A stretch of 64,000 nt of DNA from a virus (IMGVR_UViG_3300032205_000001:108218-172217), one strand, 5' to 3'. Positions 505-12,525 are shown, counted from the stretch's first letter. The notes: a model not told the origin generated them from the letters alone. Numbers and translations are program-made.

Positions 505-2343
505 CTAAGCGACCTTGTCGTCCTCGGTCTGAGTCTCGACGGTTGCCTGGTCATGGGAACGGAAGACATTCTCCTCTGGAACGTCGTCATTGTCAAAGGC
601 CAAGACGCCCTTGGTGGCACGACGAGTCGATGGGATGTACTGCGCGTTCTCGGGACCCTTGACGTAGTCCTTCTTCCAGAACCTCTTAATCGCAAGCCAT
701 TCGCCAGGCTGAGGCAGCGCCATGTCACGCTCGCGCAGTTCGTTGCGAACCCACTCATCGACAGGGCGGTCCTTGTAGATGCTGTACTTCTTATTGTCGA
801 GATCAAGTTCCAGTTCGACATCCATCGGCGTGTAGCCACGATAGATTTTGCAGCACCAGTGGCCGCGCACATCAAATCGATGAGACAGCTTCGCGCGCAG
901 CTTGCCGCCTGAGTATCCCTTGCTGATCTCCCTGATCACTTTGTCGCGCAGGTAGACCGTGTAGAACATCGGAGGGACGGCTTGCTTGATGCCGAGGTCG
1001 CCAAGCTTGTTCTTGAACTTGCTGATCGTGTGCAGGCTGGGCTTGCGCTGAGCGATGACGGTTGAGTGGTGATCGTTGATGCAGTCGACGAGCCCGTGCA
1101 GGACGAACGGCGCCAAACACAGCTTGTGGTTCCACATCACGAATTCCTGGACGTGGTGCGTAGAGATATGGAGGTTCATCTCCCAGGTCTCGCCGTGATC
1201 GATGTAGCCCTTGCTGATCAAAATCTCGTGATGCTCGCCGCTGGCCTCGGCGATGATGCCGACGAGCATGTATTCACCTGGGTCAAGACCACGCGTCTCA
1301 GCCTGGAGCTGGGAAAGCGCAATTCCGCCTGTGAGCGCAAACCAGCAAGTGTCGAACGGAAGCTTGTCCGGGAACGGAAGGCGCTGCAGGGCTTCGGCCT
1401 GACGCTTGTGGAGAAGGATCCCCTCTTCCTCGGGAACGTCCACATGTCCCTCACGAGGGTCGTAGAACTTGAGATGGGCGATATCCTCGGTGACGTGACG
1501 GTCGACCGAAATATGCAGCTCGTTGTACGACTCCGGCGTGATCTCGAAGATGCGCGCTTTGCGAAGGTAGTTGTACATAGCCCCGCACTCGGTACGGAAC
1601 TTCTCTTTGACCTTCTTGTTCCCCCAGTTCTGCTTGAGGGCGCGGAGAACCATCAGGTAGTTCTCGACGACGTACTCGTGGGCCTTGTTGTCGGGCTTGC
1701 CCCACCACGGCATCTCCTTTGGCTTCCACGGCAGCGGTCCGCCACCGATTTCTTCTAGAAGTGTAGGGATGCGCAGGATGCGCTCCATCTGAAGCTTGAG
1801 CCGGCTGGTCTCAGGAAGCCACTGCGGCGCCTTCGCGCGCAACGTTTTCAGCGTGTCTTCCCATGCCCGCTGGATGCTGGAACGAAGCTCGTCGGCGGTG
1901 AACCTCTCGGCCTGCTCCAAGATCATGTTGATGATGCCACCGGGAAAATGGCCGCCATCATTGAAGTACAGCCAGTAGACGTCTTTCTCTTCGTCTTGGC
2001 GACGCGCACGCAAGAACCACATCCCCCACTTTTTGCGGAGGCTCTCGAACAGCAGCCGGTCGTTTTCCGAGACTCGGTAGCCGACCCATTGCTCACCGCT
2101 ATCCAGCATGAGGCCGATGTATTTAGGGTTCGGCGACTTTGATGGCTTGTCAGCGTCGAGCTTGTCCTGCCACCGGATGGTGATGTTGCCCTCGGGGATT
2201 ACCTGCTGTTCTGTCACAGGCCAGATGAGCTGAACGACGGGGTAGAGATAATGCGTCGCCCCCCTTGGACAAGGGACCGCATCCGCTCCGACACGGACGA
2301 TGTTCTGTCCTTCGACGATGGGGGTGTCCGGGGTGACCTTCAT
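505..2343 (-). CDS. large hypothetical phage protein (612 aa)
   Basis: Long ORF with natural composition; no family recognised. Confidence 0.8.
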   Translation of the reverse strand: MKVTPDTPIVEGQNIVRVGADAVPCPRGATHYLYPVVQLIWPVTEQQVIPEGNITIRWQDKLDADKPSKSPNPKYIGLMLDSGEQWVGYRVSENDRLLFESLRKKWGMWFLRARRQDEEKDVYWLYFNDGGHFPGGIINMILEQAERFTADELRSSIQRAWEDTLKTLRAKAPQWLPETSRLKLQMERILRIPTLLEEIGGGPLPWKPKEMPWWGKPDNKAHEYVVENYLMVLRALKQNWGNKKVKEKFRTECGAMYNYLRKARIFEITPESYNELHISVDRHVTEDIAHLKFYDPREGHVDVPEEEGILLHKRQAEALQRLPFPDKLPFDTCWFALTGGIALSQLQAETRGLDPGEYMLVGIIAEASGEHHEILISKGYIDHGETWEMNLHISTHHVQEFVMWNHKLCLAPFVLHGLVDCINDHHSTVIAQRKPSLHTISKFKNKLGDLGIKQAVPPMFYTVYLRDKVIREISKGYSGGKLRAKLSHRFDVRGHWCCKIYRGYTPMDVELELDLDNKKYSIYKDRPVDEWVRNELRERDMALPQPGEWLAIKRFWKKDYVKGPENAQYIPSTRRATKGVLAFDNDDVPEENVFRSHDQATVETQTEDDKVA

Positions 2344-3168: not shown

Positions 3169-3378
3169 CTACCGACGTCTAGCACGTTTTTCCGGTAGCT
3201 GTATGACCTGATTGCTATTGCGGCTCGTTTTCACTGGGAGCTTCCTGATCTCGGCGAGGCGACGGGGATGAGCCCGTTTGGCCTCTGTCGTCGTCCCGCA
3301 CTGTTGGCAGTACGTGACGTAAGCATTTTCCGTGTCGTGAACGTCGAGGTGATCGTAGCCGCAATTGAAACACTTCAA
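3169..3378 (-). CDS. zinc-ribbon protein
   Basis: CxxC...CxxC (CFNC, CQQC). Confidence 0.65.
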   Translation of the reverse strand: MKCFNCGYDHLDVHDTENAYVTYCQQCGTTTEAKRAHPRRLAEIRKLPVKTSRNSNQVIQLPEKRARRR

Positions 3379-3384
3379 GGTGTT

Positions 3385-4054
3385 TTAATCCCAGTCCCCT
3401 CTCAGGTACCTCTTGAGCTGCCACTGCTTGTTCAGCACGTGATCAGTGACAACGCCGTCCTGAGAACGGATCGTTCTGCGTTTGTCTCCCCGCATCCCCG
3501 AACCGACCTGTTCACGCCGCGAAGATGACGTTTGCGCAGAATGTTGGTTGTGTGCCGCATCCCAGAGTCTTGCTCGAAGAACCTCAAGCGCAGTTTCTTT
3601 GTTGCTGTGCTGAGATCTTTCAGACTCACATCTAACCGTGATCCCGCTCGGTATGTGCGTGAGCACGACGGCGCTATCCGTCACGTTTCGGTGCTGGCCG
3701 CCGGCCCCAGATCCACGACAGAATTTCCAATCCAGGTCGCCATCGTTGACGATGACCTGAGTCGGAGAGCGCTCGGGCAGAACGGCAACCGTGATGGTGC
3801 TGGTCTGCATCCGTCCACGCTTCTCGGTGGGCGGCACCCTCTGCCATCTGTGCCCACCTGATTCGTTGGCAAACGCTACATCGGAGCCCTTGCCAGAGGC
3901 CTTGAAGACAAGAAGGCCTGGTCTCTCGCTCACGATTTCGAGGTCAAAGACCCCTCCGAGCCCCCATCTTTGCGTAGATCGCAAACTGGTCGCGAACGAG
4001 TAATTTGGCATCATCGCCGCCCTCGGCGGCCCTAATTTCGACAAAAACCGACAT
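3385..4054 (-). CDS. class I peptide chain release factor-like protein (RF1-type PxT, GGQ; lacks domain 1), expressed via +1 programmed frameshift, 222 aa
   Basis: ORF1 from ATG 4054 MSVFVEIRAAEGGDDAKLL...RRGL ends at CTT-TGA-C (3949-3943); the +1 frame continues DLEIVSERPG...GGHRWQRVPPTE...GSGAGGQHRN. Confidence 0.9.
3943..3958 (-). promoter_or_regulatory. prfB-type +1 frameshift cassette (internal SD GGAGG, 3-nt spacer, CTT TGA C)
   Basis: Minus-strand CGGAGG-GGT-CTT-TGA-C; same layout as E. coli prfB AGGGGG-TAT-CTT-TGA-C. Confidence 0.85.
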
Positions 4055-4072
4055 CCACCGACCATAGCCGAT

Positions 4073-5300: not shown

Positions 5301-5855
5301 TCACTCGTCCTGCTGCTCGGTCAAATCCGAGGTCCAGTACAGGTACGACGCCCAGGCGTCAGGAGCTGACGTCTGGCTGACCTGGATGGTCATCACCGGT
5401 ACCCAGTTCGGCTGCGCCGGCTTCGAAAGCAGACGCATTCCAGCCTGAGCCGGCGTGCGGTCTTTCTTGTCGCGGTTGCAGTCGTAGCAACAGGTGACGA
5501 TGTTGCTCCACTCGGTCTTTCCGCCCTGCGCGCGGGGAGTGACGTGGTCGTACGTCAGATCCGCCATCTTGCCCTTCATGCCACAGTACTGGCAGGTGTA
5601 CTTGTCGCGGGCGAAGATGTTGACACGAGAGAACTTGACCTTCTGCTTGTGGCGCCGGAACGCATTCAGCAGACGGACAACAGCGGGGATCTTGATGACG
5701 AGGCTGACCGACCGGACATCGTGGTCGTACTCCTCGATGACCTCAACCTTTCCCATCGTCAGTAGAGTGATAGCCCTCTGCCAGGAGATGGCCTTGATCG
5801 GCTCATATCCCTGAGAGAGCACAAGAGTTCGCAAATTCGTAGTAGCAGTCGACAC
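5301..5855 (-). CDS. HNH endonuclease
   Basis: CQYCG...TYDHVTPRAQGG...NIVTCCYDCNRDK. Confidence 0.92.
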   Translation of the reverse strand: MSTATTNLRTLVLSQGYEPIKAISWQRAITLLTMGKVEVIEEYDHDVRSVSLVIKIPAVVRLLNAFRRHKQKVKFSRVNIFARDKYTCQYCGMKGKMADLTYDHVTPRAQGGKTEWSNIVTCCYDCNRDKKDRTPAQAGMRLLSKPAQPNWVPVMTIQVSQTSAPDAWASYLYWTSDLTEQQDE

Positions 5856-7442: not shown

Positions 7443-8660
7443 CTACTTCTTGTACTTGCCGATGCCGAAATGGTCAGCAAGTGTCTTCTTCACGTCTTCG
7501 AAGATCTCGTTCACGGAGCGGTTCATGTCGAGCGTAACGACGTTCGACATGTCGCCGAACAGCTTCTTGTACTCGACGTCGCAGGCATGCGCGTATTTGA
7601 CGGCACTTTCCTCTGCGCTCTGTGAGTATCCGATGTCCATGCCGGCGGCGTAGTAATTGGGAACGCCCTTGTCTTTCATGATGCGCTCGAACGCCAGCCG
7701 AACTGGTGCGATGCAGTGGAAGATCAGATCGGGCTTCCGCATGCCACTGTAGACGTAGTTCAGAAGCTGCGTGTCTACGCCGCGAACCTTGTCTCGTACG
7801 TACGAGGTGTAGATATAGCGATCTGTGACGACGATGTTGTTCTCCTGCAGAGCAGGAATCACATCGTTTTCGTAGCGAGTGATCATGTCAGCCGCGTGCA
7901 GGATGCTGAACATGACCGGCGTCAGAAGTTTTTTCTTCTTGGCCTTCTTGATCGTCTTGCCGAGCAGCTTTGACGAATTCCACTTGGTGGTGGCGACGTC
8001 GTATCCGTGATCATCTAGCCAGTCGACGAGATGCTCCGTTTGAGTCGTCTTGCCCACGCCATCCACGCCCTCAAATACGATGAAGAGTCCTTTGTCGGTT
8101 TTCGTCTTGGCGTTGAGGATGTCGTTGACCTGGTCGTCGATGATATCTTCGACGAGGGCGCCTGGTGCCCGCATGATTGCTTCAACCGTCTTGTGGTGGG
8201 CGAAAGCGAAGCTCGCAGCATGGTGAATGCGGGCGTTGTCCTGGAAGGCCATGTGCGGCAACTTGCCAATGGAGCACCACTTCGCCTCGGCGGCGTCAGA
8301 TCCGGCCTTTGCTTCCGCGTTCGGCTTAACCTTGGCCCAGAACGTCACCCCTGATTTGTTGTGTCCGAATTCCGGGTATCCTGGATTCCACGGGGCAAGA
8401 AGGTGCAGCTCCTTTAGGTGAAGGCCGGTTTCTTCTTTGGCTTCCCTGCGAGCGCCATCTTCAACGGTCTCGTATTGCTCGACATGACCGCCGGGTAGAG
8501 CCCACCAGCCCTTGAACGGGGCGCCGCCACGTTTGGTGATCAATACTTCGATGCCGTTCTGAGGGTCTTCGCGGAAGATGGCCACGCAAGCAAGGACGCC
8601 AGTATCATTGGACGTCATCTCGCGAAGCTCGTCGCAAACCCGTCTCAACGACGTAAGCAT
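7443..8660 (-). CDS. tmk: Nudix hydrolase - thymidylate kinase fusion
   Basis: Nudix box GGHVEQYETVEDGARREAKEETGL; P-loop EGVDGVGKTTQ; DRY motif. Confidence 0.9.
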   Translation of the reverse strand: MLTSLRRVCDELREMTSNDTGVLACVAIFREDPQNGIEVLITKRGGAPFKGWWALPGGHVEQYETVEDGARREAKEETGLHLKELHLLAPWNPGYPEFGHNKSGVTFWAKVKPNAEAKAGSDAAEAKWCSIGKLPHMAFQDNARIHHAASFAFAHHKTVEAIMRAPGALVEDIIDDQVNDILNAKTKTDKGLFIVFEGVDGVGKTTQTEHLVDWLDDHGYDVATTKWNSSKLLGKTIKKAKKKKLLTPVMFSILHAADMITRYENDVIPALQENNIVVTDRYIYTSYVRDKVRGVDTQLLNYVYSGMRKPDLIFHCIAPVRLAFERIMKDKGVPNYYAAGMDIGYSQSAEESAVKYAHACDVEYKKLFGDMSNVVTLDMNRSVNEIFEDVKKTLADHFGIGKYKK

Positions 8661-10850: not shown

Positions 10851-10894
10851 CTTGCTTACCGTTGCTCCCTTCCGGGCCTGGCGGGGTTCACAAG
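10851..10894 (-). ncRNA. SRP RNA domain IV (helix 8) hairpin
   Basis: CTTGTGAACCCCGCCAGG-CCC-GGAA-GGG-AGCAACGGTAAGCAAG: CAGG/AGCA symmetric loop and GGAA tetraloop. Confidence 0.8.
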
Positions 10895-11565: not shown

Positions 11566-11575
11566 AAACTGAAAG

Positions 11576-11659
11576 TGCCGGTGACAGGGGTCGAACCTGC
11601 CTGGCCTTGCGGCCACTGCGCCCTGAACGCAGCGTGTCTACCAAATCCACCACACCGGC
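11576..11659 (-). tRNA. tRNA-Leu(CAG)
   Basis: Loop TTCAGGG, variable arm. Confidence 0.9.
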
Positions 11660-11663
11660 AAAA

Positions 11664-12069
11664 GGGAAGTCCGTGAGTGTGCTGCTACGCCAAATGCTCT
11701 AAGGGCTGTTTCGGCCGTCGGGGCTCTCGCACTTCTGCGTTCGCACTGCTTCCCCTCAGACCCGCATTTCCTCTCGTACTGCGCGGGCAAAGCCGATCCG
11801 TGCTACCTGACTGTTTGGTCACGAGCGCCGAAGCTGTTGGAGGAAACTTACCCGTTTGACCGGGGTTAGAAATGCCAACGTGCTGCAACGCCGTCTAGTC
11901 TTCGCGTCCCTGTGGTTATACTCCGGTCGAGCAGTCTATCCCTCGGTCGTACTATTGACCTTTGTTGGGGACCGGAAAAGCTTGATTTCGCCTGCGCCGG
12001 GCTACTTTCTACCACTCGCAACTCTTCAAAGGATTGCTGCTTCTAAGCCAACCTCCTCATCGTCCTTCC
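11664..12069 (-). ncRNA. ~405-nt structured RNA containing 23S rRNA H43 and sarcin-ricin loop sequences
   Basis: GGAGGTTGGCTTAGAAGCAGCAATCCTTTGAAGAG at 12022-12056; CCCGC-GC-AGTACGAGAGGAA-AT-GCGGG at 11761-11787; ends pair GGAAG/CTTCC; bounded by two tRNAs. Confidence 0.75.
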
Positions 12070-12070
12070 G

Positions 12071-12144
12071 TCGGGGTGGTGAGACTCGAACTCACGAATT
12101 CCCTGGTCCCAAACCAGGTGTCCTGGCCGCTAGACTACACCCCG
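12071..12144 (-). tRNA. tRNA-Pro(UGG)
   Basis: C1-G72, loop TTTGGGA. Confidence 0.88.
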
Positions 12145-12150
12145 TAAACA

Positions 12151-12525
12151 CTAACCGAACCTGTTGCTGCCGAACGGCGCTATCATGCATCGTACGCCAG
12201 CATCGTCAAGAATTCCTGCCATCCTTCGACGACCAGCATCGTTAAATGAGTGCAGGACAACGAACTTTGGCCGCATCTCTTCCGGCAAGGTGGCGATGAA
12301 TTCAGCCACGTGTGTGCCGGTCTTCTCGTCGGATGCTGGACGACCAGCCGCAGCTAGCTCGGACAGGTCGTGGTCAAGGTACGCGAGATCGAACTTGGTC
12401 TTGGCAAGAGCCGCGCAAGCATCTGCGTAGTTCATGACCGCTGTGATGTCCATGCCGATGCGATCCATCTTGAACTTCTTGTGGCGCTCAGCGTCGTCGT
12501 CTAGGAAGAAAATTTTCTGGTTCAT
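12151..12525 (-). CDS. cyclic-phosphate processing receiver (cREC)-like domain protein
   Basis: FLDDD...YLDHDL...TG...LHSFN..GRRRM signature. Confidence 0.8.
   Translation of the reverse strand: MNQKIFFLDDDAERHKKFKMDRIGMDITAVMNYADACAALAKTKFDLAYLDHDLSELAAAGRPASDEKTGTHVAEFIATLPEEMRPKFVVLHSFNDAGRRRMAGILDDAGVRCMIAPFGSNRFG

Follow-up and report, generated by a model that had tools for sequence, protein, structure and literature searches.

The 64,000-nt stretch of viral DNA analysed here, referred to as the window (IMGVR_UViG_3300032205_000001:108218-172217), belongs to the genome of a T4-like large phage (175 kb, ~80% complete, encoding a Gp23-type capsid protein) and includes an array of 47 tRNA genes lying entirely on the minus strand (ARAGORN, Rfam). 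Within this array, on the same strand, lies a 410-nt RNA element (11660-12069) whose two ends resemble the GTPase-associated centre (GAC) of 23S ribosomal RNA (rRNA), whose interior carries a copy of the sarcin-ricin loop (SRL, H95), and which is one of about 50 distinct members of a phage RNA family. No spacer separates the upstream tRNA-Pro(UGG) from the 5′ end of the RNA, and 5 nt lie between the end of its closing helix, P1, and tRNA-Leu(CAG). An earlier note on this DNA, made from the sequence alone, had placed the element between these two tRNAs on the minus strand, with ends able to pair; its coordinates proved correct and all of its positive statements were confirmed, including the pairing of RNA positions 1-14 with 393-405 (read from the sequence), and the closing helix covaries family-wide. 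Structural counts given here and below come from scripted sequence covariation that ignores kinship and refer to 42 anchored members unless stated otherwise. Members were anchored on their conserved ends and aligned with E-INS-i, followed by RNAalifold, and the arm structure of the window RNA is that of its minimum free energy (MFE) fold. In E. coli 23S numbering, and in the order of transcription, the locus comprises:

12070-12144, minus strand: tRNA-Pro(UGG), directly upstream of the RNA (ARAGORN; Rfam tRNA, 60.1 bits).
12056-12069, minus strand: 5′ strand of P1, the H42-like closing helix (RNA positions 1-14), pairing with 11665-11677, with tandem G.A/A.G and one bulged A.
12030-12055, minus strand: H43 copy (E. 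coli 1056-1081, from BLAST to E. coli 23S), with A1067 at 12044 and C1076 replaced by A in this phage.
12023-12029, minus strand: strand of the GAC junction (E. coli 1082-1088), reading UUGAAGA here and UUAAAGA in most members and holding U1082/A1086 and A1088.
12016-12022, minus strand: near-invariant joiner GU, Pc 5′ strand UGC (12018-12020) and GA; Pc is placed by covariation.
12012-12015, minus strand: P2 5′ strand GUGG, pairing with CCAC at 11912-11915.
11916-12011, minus strand: arm A, 96 nt, variable, closed by P2 and containing the motif CGAAAUCAAG.
11908-11915, minus strand: P2 3′ strand CCAC, followed immediately by the P3 5′ strand AGGG, forming a dual-pairing 8-mer.
11706-11907, minus strand: arm B, 202 nt, closed by P3 and carrying the SRL hairpin (MFE fold and P3 pairing).
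11761-11787, minus strand: SRL-type hairpin, with the 12-mer at 11769-11780 and a 7-bp stem GCCCGCG/UGCGGGU at 11760-11788, one base beyond the hairpin of the earlier note on each side.
11702-11705, minus strand: P3 3′ strand CCCU, with compensatory variants elsewhere in the family.
11691-11701, minus strand: near-invariant joiner UAGA, Pc 3′ strand GCA (11695-11697) and UUUG, invariant in 42/42 members except where Pc covaries.
11681-11690, minus strand: H44 copy (E. coli 1091-1100), with A1095 at 11686; the pair 1092/1099 is UA in 20 members, CG in 11 and UG in 11.
11665-11680, minus strand: ACA (1101-1103) and, after it, the P1 3′ strand; 35/42 members have G.A at 1056.1103, and neither G1087-C1102 nor G1055-C1104 varies.
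11575-11664, minus strand: 5-nt trailer CUUUU (11660-11664) and tRNA-Leu(CAG) (11575-11659) (ARAGORN, Rfam).

The H43-type sequence that the earlier note recognised over 35 nt (12022-12056) was recovered by BLAST, with 31/35 positions identical to E. coli 23S 1054-1088, and its 18-nt core (12036-12053) has a single exact occurrence in the 64-kb window. The SRL sequence reported for the closed hairpin at 11761-11787 is equally real: the 12-mer AGUACGAGAGGA at 11769-11780 matches 23S 2654-2665 at 12/12 positions and is unique in the 64 kb. The one error of the earlier note was to call H44 absent. At its 3′ end the RNA reads GCGUAGCAGC-ACAC, corresponding to H44 (E. coli 1091-1100, GCGUAAUAGC) and, next to it, the H42 3′ strand, and this H44 copy, GCGUAGCAGC, occupies 11681-11690 with A1095 at 11686. 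The H43 and H44 copies are parted by an insertion (given as 290 nt) at RNA positions 48-379, with positions 48-49 and 379 taking the place of A1089 and A1090. Judged by its sequence, the window RNA is a complete H42-H43-H44 GAC that an inserted domain interrupts after A1088. The remainder had been called not recognisably rRNA, which overlooked H44 and otherwise stands, as there is no similarity to 23S, 16S or 5S elsewhere in the RNA. Comparison of the family to 23S, 16S and 5S revealed no recurrent rRNA mimicry beyond the GAC and SRL. A 16-nt stretch at RNA positions 159-174, just after P3, is 94% identical to E. coli 16S 541-556 in L023, L030 and L035; since it is limited to these three closely related members, we judged this likeness to be probably due to chance and did not count it as mimicry. 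The view that the element is not an rRNA gene is upheld by its order of GAC 5′ half, SRL and GAC 3′ half, which is non-collinear with 23S.

Dozens of unrelated phage contigs carry both the H43 and the SRL motif at homologous positions, which places the motif pair far beyond chance. The first homologue was a distant BLAST match at both RNA ends in an unannotated intergenic stretch of the Xanthomonas jumbo phage XacN1, and motif scans of IMG/VR yielded 56 full-length copies (46 distinct, ~220-445 nt) on contigs of ~30-550 kb, most of them >90 kb. Cultured carriers found by BLAST with three other members are Pectobacterium phage CBB, Serratia phage BF, seven Erwinia phages, Cronobacter phage GAP32, Xanthomonas phages XaC1, XbC2 and XacN1, Yersinia phages fHe-Yen9-03 and fHe-Yen9-04, Acinetobacter phage ME3 and Ralstonia phage RSP15, and the RNA gene is carried by all Lak megaphages (Prevotella). 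Among genomes of 185,579 prokaryote species, the 3′ motif was present on only two contigs, both from metagenome-assembled genomes. The gene is never annotated as RNA in the cultured-phage records, all but one of which have no feature over it. Rfam 15 contains no model for it, and the window region gave no match up to E = 10 for GOLLD, ROOL, OLE, transfer-messenger RNA (tmRNA), RNase P, 6S and others, while ten other members produced no gathering-score match except to tRNAs. The cmscan comparison suggested by the earlier note returned a 25-nt, 11.1-bit local match to the large-subunit (LSU) rRNA model and none to GOLLD or ROOL, and a full-text literature search found no published description of such an RNA. 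As far as the literature and Rfam were searched, this is a previously undescribed, widespread phage RNA family. It evolves independently, is conserved and covaries; of the two motifs that homologues were expected to share, the GAC is conserved and the SRL is absent from roughly half of the members.

All members follow a common plan, which from 5′ to 3′ runs P1, H43, the junction strand UUUAAAGA (1081/1082-1088), GU, the Pc 5′ strand (UGC), GA, the P2 5′ strand (4 nt), arm A, the P2 3′ strand and, without a spacer, the P3 5′ strand (usually AGGG), arm B, the P3 3′ strand (CCCU), UAGA, the Pc 3′ strand (GCA), UUUG, H44, ACA and the P1 3′ strand. All of the predicted core helices (P1, H43, H44, P2, P3 and Pc) are backed by compensatory change. 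In P1, the pair 1054/1105 is GC in 24 members, AU in 14, UA in 3 and GU in 1, and RNAalifold gives 5 both-sided changes at several P1 pairs; H43 shows UA in 26, GC in 10, CG in 3 and AU in 2 at 1058/1080, and CG in 34, GC in 7 and AU in 1 at 1064/1074. Pc reads UGC/GCA in 45 members and is complementary in 5 others, with GUC/GAC in CBB, AUC/GAU in fHe-Yen9-04, UCC/GGA in RSP15 and UUC/GAA in Lak. P2 occurs in at least 14 different complementary combinations across the family and P3 in seven, its compensatory variants including ACGG/CCGU, CGGG/CCCG, AGGC/GCCU, AGAU/GUCU and AGGA/UCCU. Exactly one 8-mer able to pair with both the P2 5′ and the P3 3′ strand is found in 38/46 unique members (per-sequence chance 0.005-0.22). 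The arm A motif CGAAAUCAAG recurs exactly from GAAAUCAAG on in L004, and in a shorter form, CGAAUCAAG, in L010 and L068; arm B of the window RNA has a hairpin followed by a GUUYCC-like motif, an arrangement common to other long forms. Two members, L008:3141-3402 and L009:2685-3010 (both minus strand), have an extra hairpin between H43 and the junction strand, which there reads CCUAUAAUGAG.

From the sequences, the GAC fold is predicted to be present with its three helices and its tertiary contacts (1072:(1092-1099), U1082-A1086, U1060-A1088, and G1071 with 1091-1100), and a fourth helix, Pc, is inserted into it. At the base triple 1072:(1092-1099), 11 members have C:C-G, 21 have U:U-A and another 11 have U:U-G, and C and U are never mixed. 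The coupling of 1072 to 1092 is perfect, with C facing C in 11 and U facing U in 31-32, according to the set of members anchored. At least four structural subfamilies (the 243-nt class; CBB versus fHe-Yen9-04; the short GGGGAAGG class; the long SRL class) each contain the two states, so this paired substitution arose repeatedly. It corresponds to the (CG)C/(UA)U base-triple exchange that Conn, Gutell and Draper reportedly described for rRNA in 1998, in a paper listed among the references of PMC3378556. U1082/A1086 changes jointly to A/U in 4 members, while U1060, G1071, A1085, G1087, A1088, G1093, U1094 and A1098 are invariant, A1095 is kept in 41/42 and G1055-C1104 is always G-C. On the ribosome, the C-terminal domain of protein uL11 contacts nucleotides 1058-1060, 1062-1065, 1075-1083 and 1088 (PMC1802607), and uL11 binds only if the tertiary fold of the GAC is formed (PMC6239185). 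The contact nucleotides all lie upstream of the insertion point in the phage RNA and are mostly at least 90% conserved. The most variable GAC positions in the family are 1061, 1067 and 1069, which contribute no tertiary hydrogen bonds (PMC6239185).

The SRL module is restricted to long forms. We counted 29 SRL-type hairpins among 51 family sequences (46 from the motif scan and five cultured-phage copies), all in long-form arm B, and their carriers include the window, the Lak phages and an abundant class of ~440 nt. Nine different 7-bp stem sequences enclose a conserved core, and the 12-mer is exact in 15/29 copies. The universal 12-nt sequence, bulged G2655 and GAGA tetraloop are all found in the window and are only partly kept across the family: A2660 is G in L033, L139, L086 and L121, G2655 is A or U in L135, L149, L004 and Lak, and the tetraloop is AAGC or AAGA in the L050 group and Lak-A1. 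Arm B of L135:849-1271 and of L149:1523-1947 (both minus strand) contains two SRL-type hairpins each. Short forms, which have no SRL, include all proteobacterial cultured-phage copies read (XacN1, CBB, fHe-Yen9-04, RSP15 and ME3), and many short forms carry a conserved GGGGAAGGACAAG loop after P3 in place of the SRL module. Since closely related phages with identical flanks can differ in having the short or the long form (L010 versus L030), arm B is exchangeable.

Many homologues likewise abut tRNAs on the same strand, an arrangement expected if RNase P and tRNA 3′-end enzymes carry out the maturation. For the window RNA, 3′ processing of tRNA-Pro would generate the 5′ end, and an RNase P cut at the 5′ end of tRNA-Leu would generate the 3′ end. 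Cultured-phage copies that stand alone have signals suggesting separate transcription units, namely a 12/12 consensus promoter (TTGACA-17-TATAAT) shortly upstream of the RNA copy in RSP15 and, in XacN1, a promoter-like TTGACT-17-TAATAT whose end lies ~8 nt ahead of P1, together with a GC-rich hairpin and T-run just after P1 (the latter noted on visual reading of the sequence). Decay of the gene in some phages is indicated by truncated copies at L011:2100-2245 and L140:2420-2665 (both plus strand), which retain the 3′ part only (arm B end, P3 3′ strand, H44, P1 3′ strand), the 5′ half being replaced by coding sequence or tRNAs. On a 536-kb phage contig (L019:2722-3121, minus strand) the RNA lies in a tRNA array with a tmRNA gene (3249-3498) ~130 nt downstream and one tRNA between them. 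Two further contigs encode CUA-anticodon tRNAs, that is, amber suppressors (ARAGORN label Pyl; L003:3087-3162 and L074:10734-10807, both minus strand), which suggests TAG recoding in these phages.

A survey for protein partners was made in the window's genome and five other carriers. The window's genome has no gene matching L11, L12, TROVE or DUF2828, and the five other carriers have no TROVE and no RelA_SpoT domain. An all-against-all comparison of the six carrier genomes yielded no sequence-detectable protein family common to all; UvsX/RecA, DHFR, a YqeY-like protein, a metallophosphoesterase and a CCA-adding enzyme are common to five of the six. A DUF2828/DUF7788 protein, possibly Ro60-like, is encoded in four of the six (CBB 102737-104251; ME3 173077-174522; RSP15 87646-89016; G004 167770-169572); in three carriers its gene and the RNA share a strand at a distance of 7-19 kb, and in CBB 183 kb separate them. 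A 612-aa open reading frame (ORF) of the window (505-2343) was considered as a Ro60-like protein and rejected, its look-alikes being viral hypothetical or AcrVA2-like clusters. Immediate neighbours of the RNA also differ, with an RNA ligase in XacN1, a PcfJ-like protein in L008, an NAPRTase in L009, a weak HD match and a P-loop kinase in L122 and a cREC_REC protein in the window. Given the lack of a common phage protein and the inconsistent neighbours, a host partner is more likely than a phage one, which might be fast-evolving; uL11 would be the obvious host candidate.

We propose, with moderate confidence, that the RNA is a stable decoy of ~410 nt, which mimics the ribosome's factor-binding platform and would bind host uL11. 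A phage tRNA precursor transcript would give rise to this stable non-coding RNA upon release by tRNA-processing enzymes, and its two ends would form a complete GAC copy (P1, H43 and H44 with native tertiary contacts). After A1088, the short helix Pc would lead to a three-way junction from which both arms branch, with arm B holding the SRL copy in long forms. The RNA may bind host uL11, since the contact surface for the uL11 C-terminal domain lies wholly in the conserved part, and the resulting RNA-uL11 particle would imitate the factor-binding platform off the ribosome and would be in competition with ribosomes for one of the host proteins docking at this site. As targets, we consider most plausible an effector of stress or defence that is linked to the ribosome, such as the uL11-dependent stringent factor RelA, or a toxin directed at the GAC or SRL. 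Elongation factors seem less likely; like thiopeptides and SRL-specific nucleases, they are disfavoured as a common target by the variability of the H43 tip and of key SRL bases. A candidate among GAC-directed toxins is Tre23, an ADP-ribosyltransferase that modifies H44, but it needs translating ribosomes (PMC8661411). GAC and SRL together make up the factor-binding centre (PMC2330231). The compact factor-binding-site mimic envisaged in the earlier note gains from the combination of two elements of this site and from the completeness of the GAC, and loses from the accessory nature of the SRL and the variability of the H43 tip and SRL key bases.

Several observations weigh against this proposal. 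A1067 is G in 27/42 members (A in the window) and positions 1068-1070 vary, so that the H43 tip, which touches EF-G, the tRNA elbow and thiostrepton, is not under rRNA-like constraint; this makes it less probable that a contact of the EF-G or thiostrepton type is what selection maintains. The insertion also replaces A1089/A1090 at the H42/H44 junction. Among the SRL copies, G2655 (to A/U), G2659, A2660 (to G) and A2662 vary, all of which are universally conserved in rRNA, and because the SRL is missing from about half of the family the full picture of a factor-binding site applies to long forms only. With the SRL accessory and its key nucleotides variable, SRL-cleaving or SRL-modifying toxins are weakened as a general target. 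The single-sequence MFE of the window RNA is no better than that of shuffled sequences (z = 0.46) and does not recover the GAC fold. Invariance is highest in the joiners around Pc, P2 and P3, to which nothing in rRNA corresponds, and the functional site could be located there instead. A phage RNA that deprived ribosomes of uL11 would, moreover, hamper translation of the phage's own genes.

Alternatively, the GAC could be no more than a scaffold, a compact Mg-stabilised core supporting a function in the Pc/P2/P3 junction and arms (binding of an unrelated protein, catalysis or sensing) that involves no ribosome imitation. The invariance of the joiners GU-UGC-GA and UAGA-GCA-UUUG, without rRNA counterpart, speaks for this, as do the variable H43 tip and SRL key bases and the GGGGAAGGACAAG loop after P3 kept by short forms lacking the SRL. 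However, a second, independent element of the same ribosomal site was added in many lineages, twice in L135 and L149, which would be difficult to account for if ribosome likeness were not selected, and the uL11 contact surface is conserved beyond the need of the helices alone; we regard the scaffold explanation, the main rival, as unlikely. Conservation of the uL11 surface but not of the factor-contact tip would fit a sponge that titrates uL11 off ribosomes, leaving RelA inactive (a relaxed phenotype) and weakening termination by RF1, which is uL11-dependent. The RNA is placed with large tRNA sets, with which it is presumably co-expressed, so uncharged tRNA could rise, and amber-suppressor tRNAs in some carriers (L003, L074) and an RF-1-domain protein encoded in the window would be in keeping with such a role. 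The sponge leaves the SRL module unexplained, a suppressor tRNA is lacking from the examined stretches of most carriers, the window included, and loss of uL11 slows translation that the phage itself needs; we regard this possibility as rather improbable. Similarly doubtful is the idea that long forms and host uL11 form a portable, minimal GAC-plus-SRL particle whose geometry is close enough to that of the ribosomal factor-binding site that it traps or spuriously activates a translational GTPase or RelA-tRNA off the ribosome.

Binding of the closing stem by a Ro60-like protein, with the GAC as the head module of a Y-RNA-type molecule, was suggested by the DUF2828/DUF7788 protein in 4/6 carriers, encoded near the RNA on the same strand in three. 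Yet P1 covaries freely and has no conserved sequence or bulge, the window's genome encodes neither TROVE nor DUF2828, TROVE is absent from five other carriers, XacN1 and the window's genome fall outside the DUF2828-like cluster, and the CBB gene is 183 kb distant. This reading is largely refuted, and we consider it very unlikely. A functionless, decayed or rearranged fragment of host 23S rDNA has in its favour that L003 is identical to E. coli 23S 1052-1088 at 37/37 nt. Against such an origin, the elements are non-collinear, the LSU match (RF02541) reaches 11.1 bits over 25 nt versus a threshold of 50, and unrelated phages have kept the RNA, six helices and tertiary contacts of which show compensatory changes. 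A Yersinia phage copy has U:U-A where E. coli 23S has C:C-G (enterobacterial 23S being assumed to be the same as that of E. coli), and there is a promoter-like site in RSP15 and a promoter-like site with a terminator-like hairpin in XacN1. The covariation refutes this reading, leaving it a negligible probability.

Set beside the 23S GAC (E. coli 1051-1108, the 58-mer that binds uL11 and thiostrepton), the phage RNA has the same H43, H44 and closing-stem secondary structure, the same junction sequence and tertiary covariations, the invariant U1060, A1088 and G1071, and the nucleotides contacting the uL11 C-terminal domain. Unlike the 23S GAC, it is free-standing, is split after A1088 by an insertion of ~130-370 nt with A1089/A1090 replaced, often has G at A1067, and has as its H42 a plain helix of variable length without Kt-42. 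The SRL copy shares with H95 (E. coli 2653-2667) the 12-mer AGUACGAGAGGA, identical in 15/29, a bulged-G-type motif under a GAGA tetraloop and a covarying stem, but occurs in long forms only and sometimes twice, is variable at G2655, G2659, A2660 and A2662, and differs in the flank known as the 'flexible region'. YrlA and other bacterial and phage Y RNAs are small, stable, often near tRNA genes and have a variable module that imitates tRNA. They resemble the phage family in being small RNAs near tRNA genes that imitate a translation RNA (RF02553), whereas the family lacks a Ro60-binding stem, its tested carriers have no TROVE and the imitated object is an rRNA site rather than tRNA; the only YrlA match in the window region scored 17 bits and fell on tRNAs. 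Species 1 and 2 of T4 (rnaC/rnaD) share the setting in a phage tRNA cluster and presumably the maturation by tRNA enzymes, and to our knowledge they have not been reported to resemble rRNA. T4 was not among the records matched by four family members in the phage collection, a search that made no direct comparison with rnaC/rnaD. In concept, an abundant small RNA that imitates a nucleic-acid ligand to capture a host protein is familiar from 6S RNA, which imitates open promoter DNA, from adenovirus VA RNA and from Epstein-Barr virus EBER1, which binds ribosomal protein L22, although the imitated object and the hosts are different. No comparable mimic of an rRNA site turned up in our literature search.

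The surroundings of the RNA in the window hold further genes, all on the minus strand. Directly upstream of tRNA-Pro lies a gene (12151-12525) for a cREC_REC (cyclic-phosphate-processing receiver) domain protein, of a family linked to RNA repair; cREC is present in one of five other carriers, with two copies in the XacN1 terminal repeats and none in the remaining four. The tRNA island also encodes a phage class I release-factor-like protein with RF-1 and PCRF domains (3385-4065), and among the tRNA genes are those of a NUDIX-thymidylate kinase fusion protein (7443-8660) and an HNH endonuclease (5301-5855). A 44-nt match to the core of the bacterial small signal recognition particle (SRP) RNA (10851-10894; Rfam RF00169, 40.7 bits, gathering score 40) inside the island could be another translation-RNA look-alike or a chance match.

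The RNA gene is at present left blank or overlaid by spurious ORFs in annotations, and it is accessible in the cultured phages XacN1, CBB, GAP32, Serratia BF, Acinetobacter ME3 and RSP15. The family provides a natural experiment on the GAC fold, in which the (CG)C/(UA)U exchange has been repeated many times off the ribosome. If our proposal is correct, a self-folding, functional piece of the ribosome of ~60 nt has been long kept in a small RNA across phages of Pseudomonadota and Bacteroidota, and would represent the first natural mimic of an rRNA site and a new class of phage non-coding RNA. An rRNA-site look-alike would then join the tRNAs, and in some phages the tmRNA or Y-like RNAs, of phage translation islands. 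Were the GAC-plus-SRL particle to form, it would be a trans-acting piece of the ribosome made by a virus. The decoy reading, if true, points to a host process at the stalk base that phages must neutralise.

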